A program made the position numbers and the translations under genes. The notes under the pieces are model-generated. The model worked only from the letters and a program-made list of their open reading frames with translations, was not told the origin of the DNA and searched no databases. From an uncultured virus (IMG/VR IMGVR_UViG_3300030376_003448) (lineage: Duplodnaviria > Heunggongvirae > Uroviricota > Caudoviricetes), in the IMG/VR virus record IMGVR_UViG_3300030376_003448: 20,000 nt of DNA. The stretch is one strand, 5' to 3'. Every line of letters starts with the position of its first letter. Position 1 is the stretch's first letter. Below are positions 3,070 through 20,000 of this stretch, piece by piece.

Positions 3070-3070
3070 A

Positions 3071-3961: not shown

Positions 3962-3983
3962 GAAGTATGCTCAACAATTACGC

Positions 3984-4333: not shown

Positions 4334-4348
4334 ATCCTAGATGTAATA

Positions 4349-4747: not shown

Positions 4748-4770
4748 GTATAAGTGTTAGTGTTTAGGTA

Positions 4771-5639: not shown

Positions 5640-5896
5640 TCTTGTTCCCTCACAAACGGGTCATGACCGTAGATGTAGTCCTCTACTCTTTTTAGCTGAC
5701 TGCCCGATAGATTCCAGACATCACATATAGATGTCTTAGGTACTTTGTATTCGGCATGATACCATTGGATTCCCTTCGGTGTTATCAAAGCCATGACCCC
5801 ATCTTCTATCATAGCCTTTATCAGCTTAGGTATTTCTTCCTTAAATATAGGACGTGTGGCAAAGTATCTAGTGGGTTGCACTCTCCACTTCTTCAT
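5636..5896 (-). CDS. Hypothetical protein
   Basis: 86-aa ORF with ATGA overlaps to both neighbours. Confidence 0.7.
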   Translation of the reverse strand: MKKWRVQPTRYFATRPIFKEEIPKLIKAMIEDGVMALITPKGIQWYHAEYKVPKTSICDVWNLSGSQLKRVEDYIYGHDPFVREQE

Positions 5897-7832: not shown

Positions 7833-8641
7833 TGTTGATTACCCCCTATATGTTCCGCCAGTTTTAGTGCTTCCATCATCTCACTGTAATAAACAGTGTC
7901 ATACTCAAGACCATGAACATCATACATGTAATCTAGCAACCTGTCTGCTTCTGATATGTTTAGGTAAGTGGTGTTGTCGTTACCACATAGGACTAACCAA
8001 ACTCCTCGGATTGGATTCGTACAGAAGGAGTTGAACAAGCTACACATAATCCATGTGGGTGACGGCACTATAAGTTGTAGGTCATCTATGACTTCCCCGT
8101 TTGTTAGGTACAATGCTTCGTCCTCCGGCTCTTGGTAATTATACACAATCAATTCGTTTGGTGGTATCTGTGGTTGGTCATCGAAGATGAAATTCTGCAT
8201 GACGTGTGATGTCAGATACACCAGCTCATCTACTCCTCTTTTACTGCACTCCATTATGATGTCCCTCATCACTGGATAGTTATAGAGCCATGCTTTAGTC
8301 TGTTCTGGTGACGGTGTGTAGGCGTGAGATATTCTTAGGATAAAGTAACGTCGCCCATCCAAGTTACGCATCTCGTACAATCTCCATTCTGGGAAGGTGG
8401 GTAGTGGCAAACTGTTCATCGGCTCTACTTGGTGTAGCTTTGAGAATATCTTACAGACTGGTTGTTGTTCGCCCACAAGACTAGCACCGGCCACAAAGGA
8501 AGCGTAGCCCGCCTCACCTTGATAATAAACTACTAGAGTAGTAGGCTCCACTTGGTTTGGGAATTCAAGGACTCCATTGAGTATAGTTTCCTCCGTCCAT
8601 ACAAAGTCAGTGTCGCCGGTAGTTGATATTACTTTACTCAT
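7829..8641 (-). CDS. PAC2 (proteasome assembly chaperone) family-like protein, divergent
   Basis: 270 aa. 'TLVVYYQGEAGYASFVAGASLV', 'PEWRLYE', 'IIMECSKRGVDELVYLTS' parallel the archaeal PAC2-family pattern 'LIVGFPG.G.VG.IA...L ... GV..II.LG'. Confidence 0.5.
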   Translation of the reverse strand: MSKVISTTGDTDFVWTEETILNGVLEFPNQVEPTTLVVYYQGEAGYASFVAGASLVGEQQPVCKIFSKLHQVEPMNSLPLPTFPEWRLYEMRNLDGRRYFILRISHAYTPSPEQTKAWLYNYPVMRDIIMECSKRGVDELVYLTSHVMQNFIFDDQPQIPPNELIVYNYQEPEDEALYLTNGEVIDDLQLIVPSPTWIMCSLFNSFCTNPIRGVWLVLCGNDNTTYLNISEADRLLDYMYDVHGLEYDTVYYSEMMEALKLAEHIGGNQQ

Positions 8642-8969
8642 CTAATCTCTCCTTTATCTTTTCTTGTAGGAACATGGGAAACTTCTTGATTGGTTTTCTT
8701 GAAGCTATTGCCCTACTTACTGCATCATCTAAAGGACGTGCATCCCATACCCCTAGTTTCTTTTCTTCTCCAATCTTCTCAAACAATACCGATGCCCTTA
8801 GTACGCAACCAAGAGATACGGGAGTAGTACCGTAGTTATACCCGAACCTGTTTGAGTAGCAATCAGAGTTGTACCAATCGCATATGTCCGTAGATGTCAT
8901 CGGGCCGTTCTCTTGTAGATACTCATAGACTTTTGATTGTAGTCTTTTGGTCTGCCCTCTACCACCCAT
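8634..8969 (-). CDS. Winged-helix DNA-binding protein
   Basis: 'VYEYLQENGPMTSTDICDWYN...TTPVSLGCVLRAS'. Start reassigned to ATG 8969 behind GGAGAGG and the repeat motif. Confidence 0.6.
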   Translation of the reverse strand: MGGRGQTKRLQSKVYEYLQENGPMTSTDICDWYNSDCYSNRFGYNYGTTPVSLGCVLRASVLFEKIGEEKKLGVWDARPLDDAVSRAIASRKPIKKFPMFLQEKIKERLDE

Positions 8970-8990
8970 ACCCTGTCCTCTCCTGTCACG

Positions 8991-9023
8991 GTTATAATTA
9001 TTTTTGTTACCTGTCACAAGCGT
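8991..9023 (-). promoter_or_regulatory. Repeat promoter module copy 1 (variant)
   Basis: Plus strand gttataa...ctgtcacaagcgt. Motif is 41 nt from ATG 8969. Confidence 0.7.
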
Positions 9024-9200
9024 AAAAAATTAAAACGCTTTACTGCTCTCCATATTTTTATTTCTTTTATTTCTTCAAAGGTGTTTTAGAATTACTTTCT
9101 TCTTTACCTTAACACACTATTGAATTAATTGAAGAATTAGTAAATAGGCTTTCAGTGTCACGGTTTTTTATTTATGTGATATCGAAACCAACAAAAAGAA
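9024..9200. other. AT-rich intergenic region with inverted repeats; candidate origin or regulatory region
   Basis: Longest non-coding stretch in the window. Inverted repeats AAGCGT(9018-9023)/ACGCTT(9035-9040) and TTCTTCAA(9071-9078)/TTGAAGAA(9129-9136). Confidence 0.35.
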
Positions 9201-9401
9201 TTAGGAATCTATTTCTTTCTTTCTGTGATAAAAGTCATATTCATCTAACTGTAAAGTCATACCATTCTCACCACACTCGACTATATCAGATAGTACAACG
9301 TCACCTTTCCATTCAAAGGCTACAATTACAGGCCAGTGTCCTTTACCTTCGTCCATCATTTTCTCGCATATTTCTTTAAGCTCGTCTATTGTCATCGTCA
9401 T
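9201..9401 (-). CDS. Hypothetical protein
   Basis: 66 aa from ATG 9401 (MTMTIDELKEI...), immediately after the upstream stop. Confidence 0.65.
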   Translation of the reverse strand: MTMTIDELKEICEKMMDEGKGHWPVIVAFEWKGDVVLSDIVECGENGMTLQLDEYDFYHRKKEIDS

Positions 9402-9402
9402 A

Positions 9403-10224
9403 TTAGTAACCCCGTAATGCCCACGTATAATATTCTTTCTGTAACTTAGTTTTATCGTGGAAATCATTTAACCTATCTGCGTTTATCATTTTCTTTTCAA
9501 TGCTTTCTGGTAACTTACTAAGCACATCTTGACTAAACTTATCTAAGCTAGAGTGAATTCCTTCAAGGACATCACCAAGCTCTCCCGCCTCTATTGTGTG
9601 AACCCACCCTACTACCCTGTGGTATTTCTCCACAAGCATAGTAGCACCGGTAGGTGTTTCTATCGTACCCCAAATGTAGGTATTGTTATTGACAGATAAT
9701 ATATTTATCCTAAACTTATAGAGTCTTGTGTGTCTAAGAACATTATCTTTTGTGAAGCGCATATACGGGTACATTCTACCTTTGTAACTTATTCTAGGCA
9801 ACCCATCCTTCTCGTAACCGCTTAGGTAATTAGCGTCTATGAAATCATATGTTGTTTGAAGATACTTACTACCGGTATCTGATGTGAGGATATTTATTAT
9901 CGAGCCTTCATCATGCCATACATCTATCTTCATCTTTGGTTGGCTATCTATGTAGCCTTGTAGGATTTCCTTTAGCGGTGGTCTGTGGGTTGGTAATACA
10001 TCATAGATGGTCTGCATCATTTCTTTGTACTGTAATGTTGGGTCTATGCACTTCAAGAAAGCGAAAAGGATATGCCGGTCCTTTATCTCGTACTGTTTGT
10101 TGTGTTGTGATAGTAACACCATAGGGTGTTTTCTACCATTACTTTTAACCTTATTATACTCTCTAGCTTCTACAACCTTCAAGCCCTTAAGACTTAGCGA
10201 CTTGTATCTACTGCTCACTGGCAT
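9403..10224 (-). CDS. Hypothetical protein
   Basis: 273-aa ORF; no motif recognised. Confidence 0.75.
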   Translation of the reverse strand: MPVSSRYKSLSLKGLKVVEAREYNKVKSNGRKHPMVLLSQHNKQYEIKDRHILFAFLKCIDPTLQYKEMMQTIYDVLPTHRPPLKEILQGYIDSQPKMKIDVWHDEGSIINILTSDTGSKYLQTTYDFIDANYLSGYEKDGLPRISYKGRMYPYMRFTKDNVLRHTRLYKFRINILSVNNNTYIWGTIETPTGATMLVEKYHRVVGWVHTIEAGELGDVLEGIHSSLDKFSQDVLSKLPESIEKKMINADRLNDFHDKTKLQKEYYTWALRGY

Positions 10225-10462
10225 CTCTCCACTGTTTGTTTTTTGCTTTCACTCTGTTAGCTTTGCTCATGGTAGTCTTGAATTCCTTTACCATGTACTG
10301 AGGAGTCTTCTGCTTGAAGGAGCCTATACTCATCCACTTGGTACAGTCTTCTACTAACTGCCTAAGCTCATTGACTTCTTTGTTATTGGTATATGGGAAT
10401 ACCTCGTTGGCTTTCTCAGCCTCCTTTTTTTTATCCTCAAGATAATCCGTGTACTTCCTCAT
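10208..10462 (-). CDS. Hypothetical basic protein
   Basis: 84-aa ORF with an ATGA overlap to the upstream gene. Confidence 0.7.
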   Translation of the reverse strand: MRKYTDYLEDKKKEAEKANEVFPYTNNKEVNELRQLVEDCTKWMSIGSFKQKTPQYMVKEFKTTMSKANRVKAKNKQWRDASEQ

Positions 10463-10728
10463 ATCTCCGCACCTTCTTCATCGTAGTAGTATCTGTTTAC
10501 CTTGTATGTTGTAGTACCAAACTGACTTAGTGTATCGCTTAACTGCTCTCTGACATTACCCTTCCTTATACCCTTCATACCTCTAATCAGATTACTGATA
10601 TGCCTAGCATTACTGATGTACTTTTTCCTCTTGGGGTTCATCCTCTCTAGAATCTGGTCTGCCGTAAGACCGTCTGGATTCGCCTTGAGTGTCCTTATTA
10701 TCTCGTTTCTAACTCCCTGCTTTCTCAT
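10459..10728 (-). CDS. Winged-helix DNA-binding protein
   Basis: 'EIIRTLKANPDGLTADQILERM...NARHISNLIRGMKGI'. Start reassigned to ATG 10728, 41 nt from the repeat motif. Confidence 0.6.
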   Translation of the reverse strand: MRKQGVRNEIIRTLKANPDGLTADQILERMNPKRKKYISNARHISNLIRGMKGIRKGNVREQLSDTLSQFGTTTYKVNRYYYDEEGAEI

Positions 10729-10750
10729 AAAATCCCCACTCTTTTTGTAT

Positions 10751-10783
10751 GTATAAGTATTTCTATTCTGATTCGCAAGCGTC
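10751..10783 (-). promoter_or_regulatory. Repeat promoter module copy 2 (variant)
   Basis: Plus strand gtataag...gattcgcaagcgtc. Overlaps the 3' end of the upstream gene (…DDACESE*). Confidence 0.6.
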
Positions 10784-11062
10784 GTCTGGATGCACACCAT
10801 ATTTTGCTTCGTGTGCGTTGTTTATTATATCTATTAAGTCTTGGTCCTTGATAGCTTTATTAGCTATGTTCACATCGTTTATCAAACGCTGAACATAGAC
10901 ACTAGCATCTAGTAGCTCCTCTTGGAGATGCACTAACCACTCTGTAATGTTAAGGTCTTCTCTTTCCATAGTAACTCCGTACTTGGTTTTACCAACCTTA
11001 GCTCTATGCCTTATTTTCCATATTACTTTTTCCTCAATACTACTCAATCTTACCACGTCCAT
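10763..11062 (-). CDS. MazG-like/all-alpha NTP pyrophosphohydrolase-type phage protein
   Basis: 'RAKVGKTKYGVTMEREDL...EWLVHLQEELLDASVY', an EExxD acidic motif seen in a widespread phage family. Confidence 0.5.
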   Translation of the reverse strand: MDVVRLSSIEEKVIWKIRHRAKVGKTKYGVTMEREDLNITEWLVHLQEELLDASVYVQRLINDVNIANKAIKDQDLIDIINNAHEAKYGVHPDDACESE

Positions 11063-11360
11063 TGTTGTAATTCTCATAATGCTTATCGTAATCCTTTTGA
11101 CTACAAGTAAAAAGGTACGAACCATTTGGAGAAGTCTTATGCTTCTTGAACATCTTGTTCCTACATAACTTAGCTAGGAATGAGTGATAGTGTATAGTGC
11201 CTCTTTTATTACGGTAAAGGTTCCCATTTTTGTAGGTCATATTCTCAAAGATATTTAGAGCGGTGCATGGTTTATCTTGTTCTATCAACCAACGACCCGC
11301 ACACTCAAAGGCTCTAGCGAACCGTGTCTTTCTGGCATTGATACCGTTCAGCTCTTTCAT
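11040..11360 (-). CDS. Putative winged-helix protein
   Basis: 'WLIEQDKPCTALNIFENM...YHSFLAKLCRNKMFKK'. Start reassigned to ATG 11360 (ATGA overlap). Confidence 0.5.
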   Translation of the reverse strand: MKELNGINARKTRFARAFECAGRWLIEQDKPCTALNIFENMTYKNGNLYRNKRGTIHYHSFLAKLCRNKMFKKHKTSPNGSYLFTCSQKDYDKHYENYNNGRGKIE

Positions 11361-11428
11361 CTGTTCCACCTGTCCCGCCAACAACCGCACTGTCTATCGT
11401 TGTGATGCCCACACAATAAACACTTCAT
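11357..11428 (-). CDS. 23-aa Cys/His-rich microprotein (not in ORF track)
   Basis: MKCLLCGHHNDRQCGCWRDRWNR*. ATG directly follows the upstream TAA, and the stop overlaps the next ATG (ATGA). Confidence 0.55.
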   Translation of the reverse strand: MKCLLCGHHNDRQCGCWRDRWNR

Positions 11429-11581
11429 TTATCTAGCCTCCACATCTGGAATCCAGTCGCCGTTCTGGTACTCGTCGTAGCAACAATCGCACACGACATC
11501 ACCCCACTCGTTGAAGAAGTAGATGGTAGTACCTTCCCCATCTTCAATGGCGTTATCACAATCCTCTAGCTCACAAATCAT
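11429..11581 (-). CDS. 50-aa acidic Zn-finger microprotein (not in ORF track)
   Basis: MICELEDCDNAIEDGEGTTIYFFNEWGDVVCDCCYDEYQNGDWIPDVEAR*, ATGA-coupled. Confidence 0.7.
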   Translation of the reverse strand: MICELEDCDNAIEDGEGTTIYFFNEWGDVVCDCCYDEYQNGDWIPDVEAR

Positions 11582-11718
11582 TCTTCCTCATCTTCCCACT
11601 TCTCTACAAGACCAACGTACTTCTCTCCATCAGGAAAGTACACAGTGATATACAGATGACCCTTCTTGTGGTAGTCATCCACTGTGACTGTTGGCTCATT
11701 CTCTGTGTTAATTGCCAT
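11578..11718 (-). CDS. 46-aa hypothetical protein (not in ORF track)
   Basis: MAINTENEPTVTVDDYHKKGHLYITVYFPDGEKYVGLVEKWEDEEE*. SD AGGAGG; ATG 40 nt from the repeat motif. Confidence 0.75.
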   Translation of the reverse strand: MAINTENEPTVTVDDYHKKGHLYITVYFPDGEKYVGLVEKWEDEEE

Positions 11719-11741
11719 ATCTATGCCTCCTAGTCTTTTCT

Positions 11742-11771
11742 CTTAACTGTTGTCCTGTGTATCGCAAGCGT
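11742..11771 (-). promoter_or_regulatory. Repeat promoter module copy 3
   Basis: Plus strand cttaactgttgtcctgtgtatcgcaagcgt. Confidence 0.75.
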
Positions 11772-11925
11772 ACATATTATTTTCTTCTAACAATCTGTAA
11801 TCAGCTTCGCTCAATCTCTTGTCTACCTGTGTCTTTCTCCAACGACCTAGTACGCCGTTGTTTACTCCTCTTACATTCTTTCCCTTGTTGTATCTTCTTC
11901 TCATTCTTTTTCCTGTGCTACTCAT
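11743..11925 (-). CDS. Small basic hypothetical protein
   Basis: MSSTGKRMRRRY..., ATGA-coupled to the upstream gene. Reads through the repeat (…YACDTQDNS*) and stops in its TTAA. Confidence 0.6.
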   Translation of the reverse strand: MSSTGKRMRRRYNKGKNVRGVNNGVLGRWRKTQVDKRLSEADYRLLEENNMYACDTQDNS

Positions 11926-12445
11926 TGTATCATCTCCATCGGCCACCAATCGGGGGCATCTCTACCCTTCTTCCACTGGGCGAATCTACTTTTATCGTGA
12001 ATGTAGTAGTCACGATATGCGGTGACGGCACACTCGTTTTTGTAATCATCGGGCATGGCCTGTGCAAATGGCGTTAGCTCTCCTTCNNNNNNNNNNCTTC
12101 TGGTATCAAGTGCGCCATGATGTATAGATGCTCTATACCCTTCTCGCATGAATGAACCTTGTCGAATCTCTTGGTATACTCGTCGCATAGCATAGCACCG
12201 TGGTAACAAGCCCATAGGAAGTTAGACCTAGAATCACCCACCCAACGGGTACAGGGGTGATTGTGGTAGCCACCACGTAGCGGTGTGCCTTTACTTGTTA
12301 GTGGCATCATGTCGGGTGTAGCACCGTGACGGATGACGGCGGAGCCTAACTGTTGGTAAAGCTCCACGACCATCTTAGGAACGTGCTTGTCACAGTACAT
12401 CTTTGCTGACTGTATCGGGTCTTCATCTAGTATGAATATGTTCAC
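11922..12445 (-). CDS. Pyrimidine dimer DNA glycosylase / T4 endonuclease V-like family protein (split only by an assembly gap)
   Basis: 'MNIFILDEDP...CDKHVPKM...HNHPCTRW...EYTKRF.KVH...LTPFAQAMPD.YK...AVTAYRDYY...K...PDWW'. Removing the 10 Ns (12087-12096) and the duplicated CTTC gives an in-frame 169-aa ORF. Confidence 0.8.
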
Positions 12446-12702
12446 TGTATCTCCTCCAAATAATCTCGTAGGTATAGTCCTCGTCTTACAGGCTTCTCTA
12501 GTGCCGGGTCTTTATCAAGTTTGGGTTCCGATGTCGCAAGCGTGAGTATTAACTTTTTGTTATAGATTTTTTCGTAGTTTGCGAAGCACGTCGGACACTC
12601 TGGTAGCTTTGCGTACTCGGCATCGGTGACGTACTCACCGGACTCTGGTACAGGCGTACCACAGAGCCTATCATGATGTCCTAATGAGATATGCTTCATC
12701 AT
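12442..12702 (-). CDS. Hypothetical protein with possible Zn-binding residues
   Basis: H...LCG...CPTC. Start reassigned to ATG 12702 (SD GAGGAG). Confidence 0.65.
   Translation of the reverse strand: MMKHISLGHHDRLCGTPVPESGEYVTDAEYAKLPECPTCFANYEKIYNKKLILTLATSEPKLDKDPALEKPVRRGLYLRDYLEEIQ
12511..12543 (-). promoter_or_regulatory. Degenerate intragenic copy of the repeat motif (copy 4)
   Basis: Plus strand tttatcaa...gatgtcgcaagcgt inside CDS 12442-12702. No ATG at the 40-nt position. Confidence 0.35.
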
Positions 12703-12761
12703 TCTAAGTCCCACTCCTCAAAGACCCACTCGTCTGTTTCAATCCTTACTACTAGCTTCAT
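12699..12761 (-). CDS. 20-aa micro-ORF (not in ORF track)
   Basis: MKLVVRIETDEWVFEEWDLE*, with ATGA overlaps at both ends exactly filling the gap. Confidence 0.5.
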   Translation of the reverse strand: MKLVVRIETDEWVFEEWDLE

Positions 12762-12991
12762 GCTTCTTTCTCCTTGTAATCTGGATGCTCCTCTGGTAGT
12801 AAGTGCCTTCTTCGCTCCATCATATTGACAAGCAGTTTCGTCAGTTTCTTAGCTCCCTTGTCGAATCTTTCCTCCGCTTTGTTTTTTCTTGGACCTACTA
12901 CCATAGTTTCTTTTACGATAGATATATCTATGTCATCAAGGATATGTTGTAGTATCTCGTACTCAACATGGGGTATTGTTTGGCATCTCAT
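12758..12991 (-). CDS. Hypothetical protein
   Basis: 77-aa ORF, ATGA-coupled. Confidence 0.7.
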   Translation of the reverse strand: MRCQTIPHVEYEILQHILDDIDISIVKETMVVGPRKNKAEERFDKGAKKLTKLLVNMMERRRHLLPEEHPDYKEKEA

Positions 12992-13155
12992 TCCTCATCA
13001 TCTCCGTGGTCCCAAAGGATTCGCTGACACAATGCGAGTATCAATGTTCGGTATTGTGCTTCGATATCTGATAGGTCATCATCGTCCCAATTCTCGTAGC
13101 AATCAAGAAGGTCGCCGTATGTATTCTCAAATCTGCAATAACTCATATTACTCAT
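12988..13155 (-). CDS. Conserved phage hypothetical protein (MSNMSYCRFENT type)
   Basis: True start likely ATG 13155 with SD GGGGAG. The N-terminus resembles a common small phage family. Confidence 0.7.
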   Translation of the reverse strand: MSNMSYCRFENTYGDLLDCYENWDDDDLSDIEAQYRTLILALCQRILWDHGDDEE

Positions 13156-13588
13156 GGCAACCACACTCCCCTGCCTTGTGCATGTTGTATGGCATACCGT
13201 GGTTGCACACATCATAGACCCCGGCTTTCTTCCTATACTCATGAGCTTTCTCTGATATTCTCCATGCCCTAGCCTGTCTTCTCCTCTGTGGCTCGACAAT
13301 GAATTCTTGTTCTAGGCTTTCAACGTAGTCTGAAAACTCCTCCTCTGTGATTGTTGATGTAGTCCAATCATACCTGTTCTTCTTAACATTCCAACCCGGT
13401 GTTTCTGGTCCATCCATAGATGAACCCATCTCAAGCAACCACTCATACAGATTCATGTGTCTGTGGTCACTTGGGTATGAGTTACTGTCATCCATGTAAC
13501 TGACAAACCAGCTTAGGTAGTCGGCCTCCCTCTCAATATTCGTTCTTACCCTCATGGGGTTCTTCTCCTGTGTCGCTTTTTGCTCCAT
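13148..13588 (-). CDS. Hypothetical protein with C-terminal Cys/His cluster
   Basis: 146 aa ending CNHG...H..GECGCHE. ATG 39 nt from the repeat motif. Confidence 0.75.
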   Translation of the reverse strand: MEQKATQEKNPMRVRTNIEREADYLSWFVSYMDDSNSYPSDHRHMNLYEWLLEMGSSMDGPETPGWNVKKNRYDWTTSTITEEEFSDYVESLEQEFIVEPQRRRQARAWRISEKAHEYRKKAGVYDVCNHGMPYNMHKAGECGCHE

Positions 13589-13610
13589 GATACTCCATCG
13601 AAGCCGTACC

Positions 13611-13641
13611 TTTAACTGTTCCGTTCTGTGTCACAAGCGTC
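13611..13641 (-). promoter_or_regulatory. Repeat promoter module copy 5
   Basis: Plus strand tttaactgttccgttctgtgtcacaagcgtc. Confidence 0.85.
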
Positions 13642-13687
13642 ACCATTCGACTTGTGACCCGACGACGGGGGTAAGTTACTATTACCG

Positions 13688-13780
13688 TTATTCTTCTTCT
13701 GACCTTATCCAAAATCTCTTTCCACATACTCGACACCTTGACTCCCCGACTACTCTAGGGCATACCTTACAATCTGACAT
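13688..13780 (-). CDS. 30-aa CxxC...CxxC Zn-ribbon microprotein (not in ORF track)
   Basis: MSDCKVCPRVVGESRCRVCGKRFWIRSEEE*, with SD-like AGAGG. Confidence 0.65.
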   Translation of the reverse strand: MSDCKVCPRVVGESRCRVCGKRFWIRSEEE

Positions 13781-13892
13781 AGCCGTTGCCTCTACAATAG
13801 TCACAAGCATCTTGTTCCTTTTCACCTGTCATAGCCGTGTAGTGTATTGTGAAACCTCGGCCTCGACAAGCTGAACAAGTTACTTTTACCAT
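13767..13892 (-). CDS. 41-aa DnaJ-type Zn-finger microprotein (not in ORF track)
   Basis: MVKVTCSACRGRGFTIHYTAMTGEKEQDACDYCRGNGYVRL*, two CxxCxGxG repeats. Confidence 0.75.
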   Translation of the reverse strand: MVKVTCSACRGRGFTIHYTAMTGEKEQDACDYCRGNGYVRL

Positions 13893-13900
13893 AGTATTAC

Positions 13901-14101
13901 CTACTGTGGGATAACTCCATCCTCTCGTAACTGGTCGTAGTTATCCATCCATGATTTTAGTACCTTATGGGCCGTCTTTCTGTCTAGGTCACAATGCTCT
14001 ACTAGGTAGGGCGTAGCACCAAACATGTTGGTTGCTCCCGACTGCCTTAGCACCTCAAGGAAGATGTAGTGTTCTCTCCACTCTGGATTGTAAGGCATCA
14101 T
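13901..14101 (-). CDS. Conserved small hypothetical protein
   Basis: 'FLEVLRQSGATNMFGATPYL' motif typical of a phage small-protein family. Confidence 0.75.
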   Translation of the reverse strand: MMPYNPEWREHYIFLEVLRQSGATNMFGATPYLVEHCDLDRKTAHKVLKSWMDNYDQLREDGVIPQ

Positions 14102-14292
14102 ATCATCTCCATCATGTAGAGCATATCTTGTATCTTATCAGTTTCTTTTGTGGTAAATATAGTACCCGAGGACATGTGTATGTCATACGCCCATCTGTCT
14201 TCCGAAGGTATCTCGTACTGAACAATGCCACATATCTTACTTACATTTATCATAGTAGTACCGGCATTTGTCGTTAGCTTGATGTAAGTCAT
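14098..14292 (-). CDS. Hypothetical protein
   Basis: 64-aa beta-rich ORF, tightly coupled to neighbours. Confidence 0.7.
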   Translation of the reverse strand: MTYIKLTTNAGTTMINVSKICGIVQYEIPSEDRWAYDIHMSSGTIFTTKETDKIQDMLYMMEMI

Positions 14293-14652
14293 CTACTCGC
14301 CCCCCTTCTCAATAAAATCAATACAAGTTATGGCGTGGGTCAATGCCTCTATCCAACCTTGATTGATGTAATCACCATTTTCATCGTGATTCTCATAATC
14401 GCCTATGGCTTCTTCGCAATCCTCTAATGTATCTTTTAGCTGAAGCCTTAGACTCTGCATGGGAGTCATGGCGGGCTTTGGTGTGCCTACCTCACTAATC
14501 ATGTCCCAGTTTCTTTCTAGGTCACGCTCTGTGAACATGTCATAGGCATCTGCGTACCAAAAGTTAGTACCACAGTCGCTAATATCCATTCTCTCAATCG
14601 TTATCTCTCTGTTGTTGTGTTTGTTTCTGTATGTTCCGTACATGTTTCTCAC
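14293..14652 (-). CDS. Hypothetical protein
   Basis: 119 aa. GTG start 42 nt from the repeat motif. Confidence 0.75.
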   Translation of the reverse strand: MRNMYGTYRNKHNNREITIERMDISDCGTNFWYADAYDMFTERDLERNWDMISEVGTPKPAMTPMQSLRLQLKDTLEDCEEAIGDYENHDENGDYINQGWIEALTHAITCIDFIEKGGE

Positions 14653-14677
14653 TTATCCTTTCCTCATATCCTTTACT

Positions 14678-14707
14678 TTTAACCTTGTTGTTCTGTGTCG
14701 CAAGCGT
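14678..14707 (-). promoter_or_regulatory. Repeat promoter module copy 6
   Basis: Plus strand tttaaccttgttgttctgtgtcgcaagcgt. Confidence 0.85.
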
Positions 14708-14714
14708 AATCTAC

Positions 14715-15110
14715 CTACATACACCCCGCCCAAAAATCAGCTTCGTACTCATCTGTTTCTCTGTTCCAGTGCATTAGGTATAGCTCACACGGCCATGAGT
14801 GACCCCACACCTGTAAGAAGGCGACTAAGCAGGGTGATAGACCTGTGACGTATAGGTTTACCCTGTTGGGTATTTCCCTATCATGTTCCTCTTTTATGAA
14901 GCCCATGTTCTTCTCTAACCACTCATCTACTACCCGCTCGTTACCACTAAAGTCCAACGGGTTCTCCACTACCTGCGGGAACACCGAGTCAGTCACGTCC
15001 GGTATCGGATGTCTAGAATCGCACAAGGCGACGTTATGCATCCTGTATTCTCTCATCATTCCATCATCTTCCTCAAAACCATATAGGTATATCTCGTCCA
15101 TTGTTGTCAT
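14715..15110 (-). CDS. Hypothetical alpha/beta protein
   Basis: 'RHPIP...VF...VNLYVTGLSPCLVAFL...LYLMHWNRETDEY'. Start may be 15101. Confidence 0.75.
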   Translation of the reverse strand: MTTMDEIYLYGFEEDDGMMREYRMHNVALCDSRHPIPDVTDSVFPQVVENPLDFSGNERVVDEWLEKNMGFIKEEHDREIPNRVNLYVTGLSPCLVAFLQVWGHSWPCELYLMHWNRETDEYEADFWAGCM

Positions 15111-15141
15111 CTCCTAAGTTATTTTTACTGTAATTGTTGGT

Positions 15142-15193
15142 GGGGTAGCCGGACGAAAATGAAAAGCAAACAAGAAGGAATGCCGACTACCCC
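15142..15193 (-). terminator. 11-bp GC-rich stem enclosing a 30-nt U-rich loop (terminator or RNA processing/stability element)
   Basis: Minus-strand GGGGUAGUCGG...CCGGCUACCCC with one U-G pair, just downstream of the DUF932 stop. Confidence 0.5.
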
Positions 15194-15206
15194 GATAAGT
15201 TTCTAT

Positions 15207-16193
15207 CTAAGCCACTATGCGGGCTACTGCCTCCCTCCAAGCTCTGTCCTTGGTTCTCATGCCGGTCCCTAGTAGGGCCGACTCGACTCTCTTTTCATTG
15301 ACCTTCTCACCCTTTCGGTCATAGACCCATGCGTGGTCTAGGTACTCGGTCACGGTGTTGAATGACTGCCATGCCGTACCTGCCATGCCTCCGGTCGTGT
15401 TATTCTCGGTCTTCTCAAGCTCTAGGAGTCTGTCAAGCGTGTTGTTTCCTCTGGTGGTAAGACCTAGAGGGTTGTCCGTCTTGTGTATCAGCTCCTCGTC
15501 TGACTTGAGGCCCATGGCGTCAATGTAGTATTGAATCCTATCACCTATCTCCATCTCTACTTCCATGAGCTTCGACGCTTGTGAAGCAAAGTGGTGATTC
15601 AAGTGGTCGGTGATTTTTAGTGCCTCTATTGCTTGGTTGATTCTCTCATCAATTCTTGATGAGTGACGGCATGAGAGGCTTCTGGGGTTGATGCCCGCAT
15701 CCCTCATCATGCTCTCTAGGTATGCGAATTGGTTGGTGCATTGCACTCTCTGGTTTGAGGGTATGAACCTAACACCCGAAGAACCATCGTGTGACCATAT
15801 GCCGTATATGTATTGGTCTATGTCATCCATCCCGGCAATCGTGAATCCTTCGGGCATTATCATACTAACATAGCCCTTTCTGCCTCCGTCAATCATGCCT
15901 ATGCGGTCATACTCAACCCTGCCTTCGCCCACTAAGCGGTCAAAGACCTTTAGCACATCGTTGTTTTGATATACTTTGTAGGTACTGCCCACGTTACCGA
16001 GGGGTTGTCCTGTGTCGTCCCTGTATGTAACACTGTGGCCCTTGTGGTGTATGAAATCCCCTCGGTGGTTCATGTACCCCGCCGGGGCTTTCTGGACTGT
16101 GAAGTCCAGCCCCGCATTTGCGAGGACTTCTTCTGCCGTCGTTCCTTCTGCCTGTTGCCCTAGTAGGGCGTATGCCGGTAATCTACCTGTCAT
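15207..16193 (-). CDS. DUF932/DUF945 family phage/plasmid protein (TIGR03299-like)
   Basis: 'AGLDFTVQK', 'RDDTGQPLGNVGSTYKVYQN', 'GGRK', 'SHDGS', 'RVQCTNQ', 'RHS', 'GTAWQSFNTVTEYLDH'. Confidence 0.88.
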   Translation of the reverse strand: MTGRLPAYALLGQQAEGTTAEEVLANAGLDFTVQKAPAGYMNHRGDFIHHKGHSVTYRDDTGQPLGNVGSTYKVYQNNDVLKVFDRLVGEGRVEYDRIGMIDGGRKGYVSMIMPEGFTIAGMDDIDQYIYGIWSHDGSSGVRFIPSNQRVQCTNQFAYLESMMRDAGINPRSLSCRHSSRIDERINQAIEALKITDHLNHHFASQASKLMEVEMEIGDRIQYYIDAMGLKSDEELIHKTDNPLGLTTRGNNTLDRLLELEKTENNTTGGMAGTAWQSFNTVTEYLDHAWVYDRKGEKVNEKRVESALLGTGMRTKDRAWREAVARIVA

Positions 16194-16216
16194 ATTATCT
16201 CCTCTCCTTCATTCCT

Positions 16217-16247
16217 TTTAACTCTACTGCTTTGTGTCACAAGCGTC
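16217..16247 (-). promoter_or_regulatory. Repeat promoter module copy 7
   Basis: Plus strand tttaactctactgctttgtgtcacaagcgtc, 40 nt from ATG 16193. Confidence 0.85.
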
Positions 16248-16275
16248 CTTAACAATTCTTCTTCCTTTATTCTAC

Positions 16276-16491
16276 TCATGATAATACCTCGACATCATCC
16301 TCATCCTCTCCGCCCACTGTTTCCCAATGGACGAACACCGGTGGATTGCCCGTAAAGGAGCAGGTGATTCTCTCGGCTTCCGCCAATCCGGTGACGTAGC
16401 CCACGCCTTCGACGTGATACACTCCGATAACCTCTGTATCGTAATCATCGTGCATCTCCCTCCATCTTCTCAATTGTAGCTCACTGTGCAT
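16276..16491 (-). CDS. Hypothetical acidic protein
   Basis: 71-aa ORF with SD AGGAGG. Confidence 0.7.
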   Translation of the reverse strand: MHSELQLRRWREMHDDYDTEVIGVYHVEGVGYVTGLAEAERITCSFTGNPPVFVHWETVGGEDEDDVEVLS

Positions 16492-16493
16492 TT

Positions 16494-16754
16494 CTAATCC
16501 TCCTTTAGTAAGTCCAAAGACTTTGGGGGGCTAAGGTCGAGGGCGTACATCTTCAACCCATCTCTAGGGGCAACCAATCCATTCTCCATTAGGTAGTCCC
16601 ATGAGAATGAACCGAGTATCTCCTCTATGAGCTGGACTTTTGTCATGTACCCCAACCCAGAGAGCTGATACTCTGTGTCCGTCATCGGGACACCGTTCCT
16701 CTTTACTTGGCGGTCTAGTGCTTTCCTTTCATACATCGGCTTGTTCTGCTTCAT
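16494..16754 (-). CDS. Hypothetical protein
   Basis: 86 aa; first gene of a cassette. Confidence 0.75.
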   Translation of the reverse strand: MKQNKPMYERKALDRQVKRNGVPMTDTEYQLSGLGYMTKVQLIEEILGSFSWDYLMENGLVAPRDGLKMYALDLSPPKSLDLLKED

Positions 16755-16776
16755 ATTCCTTCCTCTCCTTCATTAC

Positions 16777-16808
16777 TTAAGAACCCGTCGTTCTGTGTCA
16801 CAAGCGTC
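16777..16808 (-). promoter_or_regulatory. Repeat promoter module copy 8
   Basis: Plus strand ttaagaacccgtcgttctgtgtcacaagcgtc, 40 nt from ATG 16754. Confidence 0.85.
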
Positions 16809-16809
16809 A

Positions 16810-17187
16810 TTACTCCTCATCCCACTCGGATTCTACCTTTCTGAATCTTGGCATCCTATCGTATACTAACTCAAGTAGTACCCGGTGCGATTCAGCATCT
16901 CCGTCAAAGCATTCCATACTCTCTCCGGTCTGCCATCTGGTTAGATAGGTTAAACACAATCGCTTGATTTCTTTTGCCGTAATTCTAGAGGGGTGGTATG
17001 TGTTATGCTCCCAATCCCATATCCTTTGAATGGCTTCCGACCTACTGTGAGTATCGTTGATGTTTAGGACGTACCCTAATATCATGGCAACATCTTCAAC
17101 ATCTACTGTTTCCGGCTCCGGTCTTATTGTCATCCTGACCTGCCCGTTCTTCCTCATGGCTATTGTGCCGTGTCTGCCCACACTCAT
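16810..17187 (-). CDS. Hypothetical protein
   Basis: 125 aa with SD AGGAGG. Its stop abuts the repeat. Confidence 0.75.
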   Translation of the reverse strand: MSVGRHGTIAMRKNGQVRMTIRPEPETVDVEDVAMILGYVLNINDTHSRSEAIQRIWDWEHNTYHPSRITAKEIKRLCLTYLTRWQTGESMECFDGDAESHRVLLELVYDRMPRFRKVESEWDEE

Positions 17188-17188
17188 C

Positions 17189-17314
17189 CTAATTCCTCCT
17201 ATCTACGGTGTTCATCCACGCTTGTATTACCTTTACCACAAACGCCCCTTCGTCTATCTCGCCGTTGTCATATTCGTCTATCAATCTCCAAACATACTGT
17301 TTTACATCTGTCAT
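17189..17314 (-). CDS. 41-aa hypothetical protein (not in ORF track)
   Basis: MTDVKQYVWRLIDEYDNGEIDEGAFVVKVIQAWMNTVDRRN*, SD AGGAG. Alternative start 17323. Confidence 0.7.
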   Translation of the reverse strand: MTDVKQYVWRLIDEYDNGEIDEGAFVVKVIQAWMNTVDRRN

Positions 17315-17358
17315 CGTTGTCATCTCCTTGTTCTTATCCTGTCCTTTCTTTCATTCCT

Positions 17359-17389
17359 TTTAACTCTGTTGAATTGTGTCGCAAGCGTC
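17359..17389 (-). promoter_or_regulatory. Repeat promoter module copy 9
   Basis: Plus strand tttaactctgttgaattgtgtcgcaagcgtc. Confidence 0.85.
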
Positions 17390-17391
17390 GT

Positions 17392-17577
17392 CTATGCCTC
17401 CCCAAACCTCGCTTTAGCTTCGGCTTCGGCCTCGACCCTAGTGTGGCCCCATGCGTAATTATCCTCGTTGTACCCCATCATCAACCACTCAATCAAATCA
17501 TCCTTTGATGTGCCAATCTTGTAAGGCTCATCCGGCTGGTATCTATACACGACCCACATAGGCCATCCCTTCTTCAT
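17392..17577 (-). CDS. Hypothetical protein
   Basis: 61 aa with SD GGAGGTG. Its stop abuts the repeat. Confidence 0.7.
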   Translation of the reverse strand: MKKGWPMWVVYRYQPDEPYKIGTSKDDLIEWLMMGYNEDNYAWGHTRVEAEAEAKARFGEA

Positions 17578-17913
17578 CTACGCCACCTCCTCTTTGACAG
17601 TGTGATAAGCTGACATTGATGCGGGCCAATTTGTGTGCCTCACGTATGAGTCAATGTCCTGACCTCTCCATAGGTCATATGCGTCCCTTTGAGCGTACCC
17701 ATCTCTTGATTCCTCGGCCTTTTCGTACATCAGCTCAATGATTCTTTCGCAGTGTTCTGCGATGAATCTAAGCTCGTTGGCTTTGTGGGATAGCTGGTCA
17801 TTCTGTATTGCCATAATTTGCCAATGTCTTTTGGATAGCATCTTTCTGTTTTCGATGCGCTCCCTCATCTTAGCGTTCTTTGTCGGGCTTGTTGTCTGGT
17901 TTCCTTCTTCCAT
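17578..17913 (-). CDS. Hypothetical protein
   Basis: 111 aa; first gene of a cassette. Confidence 0.75.
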   Translation of the reverse strand: MEEGNQTTSPTKNAKMRERIENRKMLSKRHWQIMAIQNDQLSHKANELRFIAEHCERIIELMYEKAEESRDGYAQRDAYDLWRGQDIDSYVRHTNWPASMSAYHTVKEEVA

Positions 17914-17936
17914 ATTGTGTCCTCTCCTTCGTTGTA

Positions 17937-17967
17937 TTTAACTGCTCTCATTTGTGTCACAAGCGTC
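17937..17967 (-). promoter_or_regulatory. Repeat promoter module copy 10
   Basis: Plus strand tttaactgctctcatttgtgtcacaagcgtc, 40 nt from ATG 17913. Confidence 0.85.
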
Positions 17968-18180
17968 ATCGGCTATGCCGTGATAATCGCTACCTATACC
18001 GAACAGGCTTTCCATGTGTTCCCAATCTCTTAACTGCCTCGCCTCCATGTAATCCTCCATTAAGATAATCTCATTATCCCCATCAAGGAACAGGCTTTTG
18101 CCATCGGTCCATTGTATCACTGTGTATAACCTCTTAGGGCCGTTTTCAATTTCGTATGTTGCTTCATCGTAATCTTTCAT
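17938..18180 (-). CDS. Hypothetical acidic protein ending inside the repeat
   Basis: 80 aa. The C-terminus DDACDTNESS* is encoded by repeat copy 10. Confidence 0.75.
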   Translation of the reverse strand: MKDYDEATYEIENGPKRLYTVIQWTDGKSLFLDGDNEIILMEDYMEARQLRDWEHMESLFGIGSDYHGIADDACDTNESS

Positions 18181-18203
18181 ATTCTATCCTCCTTATCTTT
18201 TTA

Positions 18204-18233
18204 TTTAAGTCTGTCTTTTTGTGTCACAAGCGT
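18204..18233 (-). promoter_or_regulatory. Repeat promoter module copy 11
   Basis: Plus strand tttaagtctgtctttttgtgtcacaagcgt, 40 nt from ATG 18180. Confidence 0.85.
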
Positions 18234-18238
18234 TGTTC

Positions 18239-18580
18239 TTACTCCTCCTCAGAGTTTGGTCCGGTGGGCCAATAATCTCCATCGTCCTCCTCATCGGCGG
18301 GCCAATCTTCACCATAGACACAGTAGTCTTGATTAAACATAGCTTGAAGGCTTGAGATAAGCGTCTTGACCTGCTTGGGTGTGAGGAATGCGTGAACGTG
18401 GTCGTTACCTGCGTTTATGCCTATGAAAGCCATGTGTGGGCGATAGCACCCCCTCTTTAGGTATAGCTCGCCACGGCCATTGAACACCGGGTCGTGCATG
18501 GGTTTCTCGTCGGCTACCTGCCTTCGCCAATTGTATAGGGCCACCTTTACATCGGCATCCTCAATGAATTCTGTACCCAT
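18239..18580 (-). CDS. Hypothetical protein
   Basis: 113 aa, TGATG-coupled to the upstream gene. Confidence 0.75.
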   Translation of the reverse strand: MGTEFIEDADVKVALYNWRRQVADEKPMHDPVFNGRGELYLKRGCYRPHMAFIGINAGNDHVHAFLTPKQVKTLISSLQAMFNQDYCVYGEDWPADEEDDGDYWPTGPNSEEE

Positions 18581-18744
18581 CAATTCAGCCCCCTTGAAAC
18601 CCAGACTTCATCAATCAATGCCTTAGTATCAGCATCCCCTAACTGATACACCTTATTCAGCACTCTCTTGTATACAATCAATTCTTGTAATCTGGTTACA
18701 ATCAATTCTAATTCTTCTTTCGTGTTTGCTTCTTTGTTGCTCAT
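18580..18744 (-). CDS. 54-aa hypothetical protein (not in ORF track)
   Basis: MSNKEANTKEELELIVTRLQELIVYKRVLNKVYQLGDADTKALIDEVWVSRGLN*, preceded by the canonical leader. Confidence 0.8.
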   Translation of the reverse strand: MSNKEANTKEELELIVTRLQELIVYKRVLNKVYQLGDADTKALIDEVWVSRGLN

Positions 18745-18767
18745 ATTGTGTCCTCTCCTTCATTCTA

Positions 18768-18798
18768 TTTAACTGCTCTTATCTGTGTCACAAGCGTC
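18768..18798 (-). promoter_or_regulatory. Repeat promoter module copy 12
   Basis: Plus strand tttaactgctcttatctgtgtcacaagcgtc, 40 nt from ATG 18744. Confidence 0.85.
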
Positions 18799-18806
18799 GT
18801 TCTCTC

Positions 18807-19127
18807 CTACCAATCCCTAATTATGATTGTTGAATCCTCTGTGCGTCCGTTCCAATTGTACCCACCCGCTTCAATGACGATGGTGTAGAGGTCGATATCC
18901 TCGTCCTCATCAAGCCCGTAGGCTTTACGTACTTCGTCCTCGTCGGCGTACTCTGTATACTCGCAACAGATGGCGATGACATCAAGCTCAAGCTCAATGC
19001 CCCATTCTTCTTCAAGCTCTGTTAGGTACTCATACAGGGCTATTCTTCCGGGGCGGGTGAAGTTATCCTCTCGGTTCATATTCACAAATGCGTCTACAAA
19101 TGTTTGTTCGGTTACTGTCTGTTTCAT
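18807..19127 (-). CDS. Conserved acidic phage hypothetical protein
   Basis: 'R.DNFT..G..ALYEYL.ELEE..G.ELELDVIAICCEYTEY' pattern seen in a phage small-protein family. Confidence 0.8.
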   Translation of the reverse strand: MKQTVTEQTFVDAFVNMNREDNFTRPGRIALYEYLTELEEEWGIELELDVIAICCEYTEYADEDEVRKAYGLDEDEDIDLYTIVIEAGGYNWNGRTEDSTIIIRDW

Positions 19128-19150
19128 ATTGTGTCCTCTCCTTCATTTCT

Positions 19151-19181
19151 TTTAACTCTGTTGTTCTGTGTCACAAGCGTC
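19151..19181 (-). promoter_or_regulatory. Repeat promoter module copy 13 (hybrid of copies 14 and 15)
   Basis: Plus strand tttaactctgttgttctgtgtcacaagcgtc. Confidence 0.85.
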
Positions 19182-19183
19182 AT

Positions 19184-19303
19184 CTACTTCTTACTCCACG
19201 TCCTCTTGAGCCTCTCTGCTCTAAACTGTTCGTCCTTGATTTCCCTCTTTAGATATTGGCCAATCTTTCTCGCAAATTCTGTGTTTGTGCTTCTTCTTGA
19301 ATA
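19184..19303 (-). other. 3' fragment of an allelic variant of CDS 19672-19956 (alternative haplotype)
   Basis: Encodes ...EQFRAERLKRTWSKK* versus ...EQFRVERLKRKVENGTHPWSKK*. 19227-19303 is identical to 19736-19812 (77 bp). Confidence 0.85.
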
Positions 19304-19313
19304 NNNNNNNNNN

Positions 19314-19390
19314 TTCACAAATGCGTCTACAAATGTTTGTTCGGTTACTGTCTGTTTCATATTGTGTCCTCTCCTTCATTTCTTTTAACT
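19314..19390. repeat. 77-bp exact duplicate of 19081-19157 after a 10-N scaffold gap (assembly bubble overlap)
   Basis: Exact identity ends at TTTTAACT. Both gap flanks are duplicated over exactly 77 bp. Confidence 0.9.
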
Positions 19391-19414
19391 GTGTTGTTTT
19401 GTGTCACAAGCGTC
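19384..19414 (-). promoter_or_regulatory. Repeat promoter module copy 14
   Basis: Plus strand tttaactgtgttgttttgtgtcacaagcgtc. Confidence 0.85.
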
Positions 19415-19426
19415 ATTTATACTCCT

Positions 19427-19615
19427 TCAAAAATACTCATCCTTCAATGCCTCTAAAGCGCATGAACGGCAATATCTATTTCCGGCGTACATTCCATCAA
19501 GCTGGATATAGAGTCTTACTGCCTCTTTTCCGCAACCCATACAACACTCGGTCATAAATAGCTCCAAATCCATAGCTTTTTTTAGGCTCATCTTCTTTCT
19601 TGTTTCTTGGTTCAT
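19427..19615 (-). CDS. 62-aa Zn-finger protein; presence/absence cassette gene
   Basis: CCMGCG...YCRSC. Absent from the alternative haplotype. Confidence 0.8.
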   Translation of the reverse strand: MNQETRKKMSLKKAMDLELFMTECCMGCGKEAVRLYIQLDGMYAGNRYCRSCALEALKDEYF

Positions 19616-19638
19616 ATTGTGTCCTCTCCTTCTTTTTA

Positions 19639-19669
19639 TTTAACTCTGTTGTTCTGTGTCACAAGCGTC
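19639..19669 (-). promoter_or_regulatory. Repeat promoter module copy 15
   Basis: Plus strand tttaactctgttgttctgtgtcacaagcgtc, 40 nt from ATG 19615. Confidence 0.85.
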
Positions 19670-19671
19670 AT

Positions 19672-19956
19672 CTACTTTTTGCTCCACGGATGTGTGCCGT
19701 TCTCAACCTTCCTCTTGAGCCTCTCTACTCTAAATTGTTCGTCCTTGATTTCCCTCTTTAGATATTGGCCAATCTTTCTCGCAAATTCTGTGTTTGTGCT
19801 TCTTCTTGAATAGAGGTACACATTCTCTATTTTTCGTGCCGATGTGCGACATACTCTAATCACCGCATCAAGGTCGGTACTTTTCCCTCCCCATAAATCG
19901 CTACATTCGTTTTGGTATTCTTCGTATATCTGTTGTATCTCCTTTACTGCTTTCAT
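19672..19956 (-). CDS. Hypothetical basic protein
   Basis: 94 aa with SD AGGAGG. Its stop abuts repeat copy 15. Confidence 0.8.
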   Translation of the reverse strand: MKAVKEIQQIYEEYQNECSDLWGGKSTDLDAVIRVCRTSARKIENVYLYSRRSTNTEFARKIGQYLKREIKDEQFRVERLKRKVENGTHPWSKK

Positions 19957-19979
19957 ATTCTGTCCTCCTAATCTTTTTA

Positions 19980-20000
19980 TTTAACTGTGTTGTTTTGTTT
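19980..20000 (-). promoter_or_regulatory. Repeat promoter module copy 16 (truncated by window end)
   Basis: Plus strand tttaactgtgttgttttgttt, with the same 40-nt register to ATG 19956. Confidence 0.6.

Follow-up and report, generated by a model that had tools for sequence, protein, structure and literature searches.

How do tailed archaeal viruses that lack an RNA polymerase of their own time the expression of their genes? We addressed this question with an array of repeated modules in an uncultured Caudoviricetes virus (IMG/VR IMGVR_UViG_3300030376_003448). The DNA analysed, here called the window, is one strand of a 20,000-nt stretch, in which the array fills positions 8,991-20,000. Each module carries a 14-bp asymmetric box followed by archaeal-type promoter elements. 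On balance we favour the reading that the modules are archaeal promoters for the host polymerase, each with an upstream activating box that would be read by a viral zinc-finger protein, and that they also serve as homology handles. An earlier note, made from the sequence alone, had described the array as gene cassettes that are each headed by a palindrome, a TATA box and a leader.

The repeat array and its promoter anatomy

Allowing up to two mismatches to the 13-mer TGTGTCRCAAGCG, we found 17 matches, against 0.47 expected (0 of 200 shuffles reached 17). Fifteen of them are the full copies that the earlier note had placed at starts from 9010 to 19655; the remaining two lie at 4840 (+) and 15576 (-). 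A sixteenth copy in that list, at 19996, is cut by the end of the window and is complete in the near-identical contigs L207, L220 and L009. The reported spacing also held, with the start codon 40 nt from the motif in 10 copies and 39-42 nt in 4, and the outlying copies at 17375 and 12530 stand 52 nt and 85 nt from theirs. The total of 16 needs amending: the sites are real, but two of them are one module in two haplotypes. The N gap at 19304-19313 is a scaffold joint. Positions 19314-19419 are 97% identical to 19081-19186; the sequence to the right of the gap matches L220 at 99.9% and has a cassette for a 62-aa protein, and the piece to the left matches L207 and is without that cassette. Copies 19400 and 19167 are therefore one locus, and a single genome thus has 14 or 15 modules in this span. 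Relative to L207, a 21-nt in-frame deletion at 19225-19245, near the end of the 94-aa gene, makes the left piece a third allele.

The box itself was defined on relatives. Pattern and protein scans gave 233 merged contigs. A loose pattern scan returns mostly chance single hits, hence motif counts were made on the 82 or 83 contigs with at least two boxes, which hold 463 sites (165 after dereplication). These 165 give the consensus G-ACGCTTGYGANRCA, the 14-bp asymmetric box being ACGCTTGYGANRCA. Within it ACGCTT is essentially invariant; ACGCTTGCGACACA, ...GAGGCA and ...GAAGCA are the commonest boxes, and TGCTTGCGTGGTCG is a variant set beside the common ACGCTTGCGACACA. The TGTG-N-CACA palindrome, previously taken for the core, does not survive this comparison. 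What is conserved is ACGCTT instead, and the dyad positions Y8 and R12 do not covary (C-G 71, C-A 45, T-G 21, T-A 9), so that the palindrome is a local variant. Genes that overlap a box nearly always read it in the same frame, Asp-Ala-Cys-Asp/Glu (in the window at 10763-10783, 17938-17967 and 11743-11772), and two tolerant positions of the box fall on wobble positions of this frame.

Behind the box come a tract resembling the B recognition element (BRE), then a TATA box near -28 and finally the start codon, preceded by a pyrimidine at -1. The geometry was scored on 136 unique sites found by a 9-letter core only, 105 of which lie outside the patterns used for contig selection. A TATA-like word stands at positions 25-30 in 110 of the 136 and in 79 of the 105 (random, 278/2720), and an ATG at positions 53-57 in 97/136 and 68/105, respectively (random, 379/2720). 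The box lies 5-6 bp upstream of the BRE-like tract, which is purine-rich, with A at -34 (60%) and -33 (75%) and a modest information content. The TATA starts 28-29 nt before the ATG (72 of 88 scored) and reads T-29 T-28 W-27 A-26 when aligned on it. This is the spacing of leaderless haloarchaeal promoters, whose TATA is centred at -27/-28 (PMC2151090), and it therefore predicts archaeal leaderless transcription. Moreover, a pyrimidine precedes the start codon in 50/50 boxed genes against 37/61 non-overlapping operon-internal genes (p 5e-8, on related contigs that are not fully independent); with overlapping operon-internal genes included, the latter figure is 75/193. A TATA at -28 together with a pyrimidine at -1 predicts a transcript that begins at the A of the ATG, which we regard as highly likely. 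Copies 17375, 14694 and 12530 have no ATG at the predicted start and have a separate start further on. That the modules are archaeal promoters is almost certain, and the earlier note was right to see the anatomy of a promoter in them.

Its 20-bp leader fared less well. The sequence does recur as a 20-mer ending in ATG (n=5), but the two haplotypes leave only 4 independent copies, and the TATA at -28 and the 50/50 pyrimidine, which place the predicted start at the ATG, speak against a transcribed leader. It is probably a Shine-Dalgarno (SD) site for read-through RNA, with GGAG at -12 to -9 in the module. SD-like words are equally common in boxed genes (44/50) and operon-internal genes (155/193), and there is no hairpin or regular terminator between cassettes, which makes use on read-through RNA the most likely role. 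Folding of 8 modules gave no conserved hairpin (z +0.98 to -1.85), and there was no Rfam match.

In other lineages full modules head the clamp-loader gene or the gene before it. Because the box heads core replication genes such as this one, it is first of all a regulon marker. No such array was found in cells: a search of 185,579 cellular genomes with the full pattern returned 30 single hits, which are scattered and in no case titled Poseidoniales. One RNA run gave a single 163-nt contig, at <90% identity, which is uninformative on expression.

Two copies stand apart from the modules. A perfect antisense box inside the DUF932 gene (15574-15588, +) had been overlooked; no clear TATA follows it. 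It is kept in 5 distinct close-relative sequences (one identical to the window), among which it changes only at tolerated box positions and the neighbouring wobble bases vary. The copy at 4840 was considered as the operator of a 132-aa gene and dropped: it lies ~90 nt upstream, within the frame of a 72-aa open reading frame (ORF), and several relatives have it in degenerate form or not at all.

A zinc-finger gene that tracks the box

Immediately upstream of the array is a gene for a cysteine/histidine-rich, multi-zinc-finger protein of 158-277 aa (P0001 in L220); in L207 this gene ends just beyond the module at 19956..20000. ORF families present in three or more of 10 genomes or contigs number 107, and by BLAST the zinc-finger family alone occurs in 8/8 box-bearing and 0/2 box-less records. 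In the box-less genome G010, whose sequence is unbroken from DUF932 to terminase, the 9-letter core is absent over 56 kb, and so is the zinc-finger gene. The sister of G010, L003 (support 100/99), has both, and at three orthologous promoters L003 has the box where G010 has lost it and kept the TATA.

A DUF932-anchored scan, blind to the box, covered 29 loci. Nine have 6-14 boxes together with the gene, 1 has boxes but no upstream DNA, 3 are distant and 12 have neither (7 of these with at least 6 kb upstream). A further 2 have the gene without a canonical box, L380 combines a truncated frame with the lack of any box, and L381 has neither, with only 2.2 kb upstream. The 12 loci form two separate groups in the tree. 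The second clade, which includes the complete genome G012, lacks both box and gene, G012 having no zinc-finger gene genome-wide. The exceptions L378 and L379 (= G013) pair a diverged protein (E 2e-26, G013) with a variant box, TGCTTGYGTGG. Five copies of this variant in the outgroup G013 lie upstream of a TATA and 1 lies between the TATA and the ATG of the zinc-finger gene, the place where L228 has a reversed near-box.

The module had been supposed to depend on an activator. Co-loss of the box with the zinc-finger gene gives real support to this, and from the sequence comparisons we infer binding and activation: the zinc-finger protein is likely to be the reader of the box and is the best candidate activator. 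Precomputed Pfam assignments are absent on 57 of its 58 homologue rows, with one weak, unnamed PHROG match, and a profile search returned 31 representatives, none annotated. The fold model has a predicted template modelling score of 0.31 and no Foldseek match at E 0.001; VIA-align matched the N-terminal helical hairpin only, at Z < 8. A single-sequence model of the C-terminal 74 residues has a predicted local distance difference score of 48, and protein atlas scores of at best 0.83 and 0.77 are leads only.

Several observations weigh against this reading. In many lineages (L002, L004, L095 and others) the zinc-finger gene ends in the first box, which encodes its last residues (Asp-Ala-Cys-Glu-Ala-stop). 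This coding end may be the origin of the box, so that box and gene could be linked by shared history, without any binding. Two independent losses underlie the co-loss, and the G010 genome is 84% complete. By hidden Markov model (HMM) the NKHN family, too, is present in 8/8 box-bearing and 0/2 box-less records, though it is missing from the complete box-bearing L359. L380 has a zinc-finger-like truncated frame (E 1e-6) and no box in 13 kb, and a box at the start of the zinc-finger gene occurs in 2 lineages only (45 loci scanned). The repeats of virus HF2 are reported to be active without viral proteins (PMC8707807), and the strong SD (44/50) would fit a leadered model too.

Some of these points bear on the possibility that the anatomy of the promoter stands but the reader of the box is a host protein, and that the zinc-finger gene tracks the box through the shared 3' end or joint loss. 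Such a reader would suit a box whose tolerant positions fall on the codon wobble of the coding end, and repeats that work without viral factors in HF2; moreover, the host factor Sta1 is implicated in viral transcription (PMC5569661). However, G010 has erased its boxes singly, at orthologous promoters several kb from the gene, a variant box accompanies a variant protein, and host copies with this geometry were not found in the 185,579 cellular genomes. We consider a host reader unlikely.

It is also rather unlikely that the zinc-finger protein binds the box, operator-like, as a repressor or timed shut-off of strong constitutive promoters. According to a 2017 review most characterised archaeal viral regulators are repressors (PMC5569661). 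The TATA boxes look near consensus, and the same box lies between the TATA and the start of the zinc-finger gene in two lineages and antisense in DUF932. Yet the box of the modules is fixed upstream of the BRE and overlaps neither BRE, TATA nor start. Few TATA-headed starts occur in the arrays of the box-less G012 and G010, which suggests that many array promoters depend on the box. If the protein does bind, we would strongly expect it to activate rather than repress.

The NKHN-family protein (14293-14652), alone or with the zinc-finger protein, shows the same presence and absence over the 10 main records, but is a very improbable reader. It is missing from L359, whose array was covered from the zinc-finger gene to the core operon and has at least 6 canonical boxes; its gene often lies directly behind a box, as that of a target would, and searches found no known family for it. 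A role as partner or key target of the regulon is possible. Four winged-helix-like genes (so labelled by inspection, with one weak DUF3860 hit) lie at 4349-4747, 8634-8969, 10459-10728 and 11040-11390, two of them directly behind modules. They were dropped as box readers, all having homologues in box-less G010, and could form a second regulatory tier.

With the zinc-finger protein as reader, events might run as follows. The zinc-finger gene would be transcribed first, mostly from a promoter without a box. Its product would bind the box upstream of the BRE, where archaeal activators usually bind (PMC5937170), and, probably through recruitment of TFB or TBP, turn on the array together with the replication operon next to it. 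The mRNA would be leaderless, starting most likely at the A of the start codon, and GGAG (-12 to -9) would be used when a gene is read on longer RNA from upstream modules, most modules being without a terminator. Distal modules would recombine, with whole promoter-gene cassettes being deleted, inserted or moved. A fuller account, which we put forward only tentatively, is that a new family of viral zinc-finger activators drives an early-to-middle switch in a group of archaeal viruses abundant in the sea. Its members would read a box derived from the end of their own gene and have co-evolved with that box, in some lineages repressing their own promoter from a copy downstream, and the promoter that they control would be a portable unit of gene exchange. 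If true, a gene arriving in a cassette would join the activator's regulon at once. The question can be tested without host culture, since the 14-bp site is defined, a candidate protein can be named, and nature supplies two knockouts and one specificity variant.

Cassette exchange at the modules

The modules and genes of the window are listed from the end nearest the zinc-finger gene.

19956..20000, minus strand: module truncated at the end of the window, with its BRE-TATA-SD-ATG part present; 94-aa ORF 19672-19956 behind it
19615..19669, minus strand: module; heads the 62-aa ORF 19427-19615; cassette in L220, absent in L207
19360..19414, minus strand: module of the 106-aa gene, haplotype 1; same locus as 19127-19181
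19304..19313, no strand: scaffold gap (N) that joins two haplotypes
19127..19181, minus strand: chimaeric module, haplotype 2; heads the 106-aa ORF 18807-19127; cassette placed elsewhere in relatives
18744..18798, minus strand: module; heads 54-aa and 113-aa ORFs
18180..18234, minus strand: module; heads the 80-aa ORF 17938-18180; L213 and L010 lack the cassette, each with a crossover point of its own
17913..17967, minus strand: module; heads 111-aa and 61-aa ORFs
17323..17389, minus strand: module lacking an ATG where the start is predicted, with a short leader that has an SD of its own; heads 44-aa and 125-aa ORFs
16754..16808, minus strand: module; heads 86-aa and 71-aa ORFs; L214 has an extra 178-aa cassette before it
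16193..16247, minus strand: module; heads the DUF932 gene; homology to 4 relatives starts at the box
15207..16193, minus strand: DUF932 protein, 328 aa (PF06067, E 1.5e-32)
15574..15588, plus strand: perfect antisense box inside the DUF932 gene
14652..14708, minus strand: module; heads the NKHN-family gene and the small ORFs behind it
14293..14652, minus strand: NKHN-family protein, no known family; lost in both box-less lineages, missing from L359
13588..13641, minus strand: module; heads a 146-aa ORF
12445..12544, minus strand: diverged module with a putative leader of ~45 nt; heads the pyrimidine-dimer glycosylase-like gene
12074-12445, minus strand: pyrimidine-dimer glycosylase-like gene (PF03013, E 3.6e-6); N gap inside at 12087-12096
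11718..11772, minus strand: module; the gene behind it is replaced in relatives from the ATG onward
10728..10783, minus strand: diverged module overlapping the end of the upstream gene; heads 89-aa, 84-aa and 273-aa ORFs
9024..9036, minus strand: T-rich tract just before the last box, with similar tracts in relatives; putative archaeal terminator that would close the read-through RNA of the array
8969..9024, minus strand: last module; behind it stands the conserved core operon, with 111-aa, 270-aa and 440-aa P-loop genes
32..8969, minus strand: conserved replication block (context), with GroEL at 32-1561 and the clamp-loader small subunit at 3071-3961

Downstream of DUF932, at 15117-15206, lies an 11-bp inverted repeat with a pyrimidine-rich 30-nt loop (folding z -0.54, no Rfam match).

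In close relatives (17 pieces) the distal array is shuffled cassette by cassette. The prediction that cassettes are gained, lost and moved with crossovers inside modules was borne out. Crossovers were mapped for four cassettes with sharp junctions. That of the 62-aa cassette falls in the TATA stretch and leaves the chimaeric module at 19127..19181, whose 5' half comes from the 19655 copy and whose 3' half comes from the 19400 copy. The 69-aa cassette has its crossover in the first 8 bp of the box and the 178-aa cassette in the stretch from box to BRE; for the 80-aa cassette two relatives differ, L213 having it in the SD stretch and L010 in the box. The position of the 106-aa cassette varies between genomes. 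The four most distal modules are 81-96% identical over 57 bp and hence would act as homology handles, against 40-47% between distal and most proximal copies; proximal module junctions are mostly stable. Since crossovers fall at several places in the module, the exchange is homologous rather than site-specific, and that it occurs at modules is very probable.

Comparison of synteny for breakpoints in the module, as the earlier note had proposed, gave a divided answer. Crossovers do lie in modules, but junctions with a module do not clearly vary more than the rest: 11 of 19 with one are variable and 10 of 24 without (each count including one truncation artefact). Modules hold 19 of the 115 distinct alignment ends and make up about one tenth of long arrays, these end counts being confounded by divergence inside genes. 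Both figures tell against the modules as favoured points of exchange and so against the reading that we prefer. Genes also move at microhomologies around the SD and the start. Different genes share a 15-residue N-terminus (MEEANQTTSPPENA-like; window 17870-17913, L213, L227, L206, L010 and L233), so that homology runs beyond the ATG and recombination there makes chimaeric genes.

Tightly bounded single-gene cassettes, with several homology ends at the start of the box, might suggest instead that the palindrome is a site-specific recombination site, integron- or shufflon-like, with the promoter secondary. The tyrosine recombinase for which a search had been proposed was absent: 0/4 records (2 of them at least 90% complete) have a tyrosine integrase, with the control positive in 14/14. 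Moreover, the crossovers occupy four different places along the module, one cassette having two of them, and there is no dyad covariation or conserved hairpin. The diverged proximal modules keep their box at junctions that are mostly stable, and boxes head core genes. These findings, with the junction counts of 11/19 and 10/24, make a dedicated recombination site hardly credible. Rather, the array is cassette shuffling like that of the promoter-early stem-loops (PeSL) of T4-type phages, caught as polymorphism within one virus population.

The virus and comparison with known systems

Seven of the 46 window proteins have a Pfam hit, and they include GroEL, a clamp-loader subunit, DUF932 and the pyrimidine-dimer glycosylase-like protein. 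A relative, G002 (61 kb, 92% complete), encodes PolB, ERCC4, a PD-(D/E)XK nuclease, a clamp, a weak Sak4-like ATPase, terminase, portal and tail genes; among the matches listed for its PolB (best 25), all are haloviruses. Primase and MCM genes were labelled by inspection, the HMM search giving no hit, and annotated phages gave no match to the 440-aa core-operon protein. If this were a bacterial phage, a sigma-70-type promoter (TTGYGA, 17 bp, TAAAWR) ahead of a 15-nt SD leader would fit the spacing, the well-placed SD and the bacterial-type GroEL. That reading is extremely unlikely, given a -10 hexamer without its last T, 17 matches against 21.7 in shuffles (only 3 in modules, in differing registers), the relative's halovirus-like PolB with ERCC4, clamp and clamp loader, and the GroEL known in magroviruses (PMC5434244).

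By gene content, rather than by a tree with reference genomes, the virus resembles the group C magroviruses, because it has GroEL, no ligase was seen and a phosphoesterase gene lies beside the packaging genes, as that paper describes. Both have a halovirus-like PolB, clamp, clamp loader, RadA/Sak4-like ATPase, nucleases and GroEL, and a phosphoesterase/exonuclease gene beside the packaging genes. GroES is called probably unneeded in that account, whereas here a 92-aa gene of GroES size adjoins GroEL (1564-1842; by reading, with no HMM hit). GroEL is also present in group E magroviruses (PMC11706807), and the complete genome G011 has no GroEL match. Gene content suggests Poseidoniales as the putative host.

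The array is flanked on one side by a repeat-rich region near the terminase genes and on the other by the replication operon. That it is an array of an archaeal virus was well judged by the earlier note, and it adjoins the terminal region of the genome. Upstream of the zinc-finger gene, L011, L188, L367, L369, L372, L379 and L380 have gene-poor DNA with dense short repeats that are lineage-specific (in L379, one 9-mer x42), possibly a genome end or origin. A second repeated element, a TATA followed by CCCCCATCTCAT, occurs in L003 at 300-2200 and in the matching part of G010, near divergently oriented small genes; it is retained in box-less G010.

We found no paper that describes this element, subscription papers and some supplements lying outside the scope of the search. 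Word searches in PMC5434244, PMC10160649, PMC11706807, PMC5332604 and PMC8651126 turned up no mention of such viral promoters or repeats, and PMC5434244 mentions no promoter, repeat or motif for magroviruses.

Among known systems, the class I repeats of HF2 (Russ et al. 2021, PMC8707807) are alike in being ~57 bp long, in the early-middle arm of a tailed euryarchaeal virus, with a motif upstream of BRE, then TATA and start. Their position is kept across relatives, they head replication genes, and a viral regulator was proposed. They differ in sequence: the alpha, beta and gamma motifs quoted in that text, compared by eye, are not shared. HF2 has 7 copies over 33 kb, with no cassette shuffling reported in the text available, whereas here 14-15 lie in 11 kb and cassettes move. 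The factor proposed for HF2 was not found in that work, and mutation of the alpha motif had no effect in the absence of viral proteins; here co-loss and co-variation point to a candidate.

The PeSLs (Arbiol et al. 2010, PMC2839356) and the start-associated sequences (SAS) and extended SAS (ESAS) of mycobacteriophages had both been named as analogues. The likeness to PeSLs stands for cassette exchange. Both are repeated start modules in a variable region, abutting upstream stop codons, with homologous crossovers at varied points, promoter-gene units that come and go, chimaeric modules and no dedicated recombinase. It fails for the sigma-70 promoters and terminator stem-loops of PeSLs; here the elements are archaeal, with no hairpin and a probable activator box. 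SAS/ESAS of cluster K phages (Pope et al. 2011, PMC3203893) are likewise start-linked repeats, 13-14 bp long, asymmetric, in 11-19 copies and rare in the host, with a consensus that varies by lineage. However, SAS and the ribosome-binding site overlap, and ESAS consists of paired 17-bp inverted repeats, whereas the present box lies 40-55 nt upstream of the start, in front of a TATA box. TFB-RF1/ARA-box activation (Reichelt et al. 2018, PMC5937170) also uses a conserved motif at a fixed distance upstream of BRE/TATA. That system is cellular, serves one or two operons and is palindromic in the case of TFB-RF1; here an asymmetric viral box recurs in multiple copies, and the candidate protein, rich in cysteine and histidine, belongs to no known family.

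Taken together, the system works like the HF2 class I repeats and the PeSLs combined and belongs to neither. What is new here is a candidate zinc-finger regulator that tracks the box.

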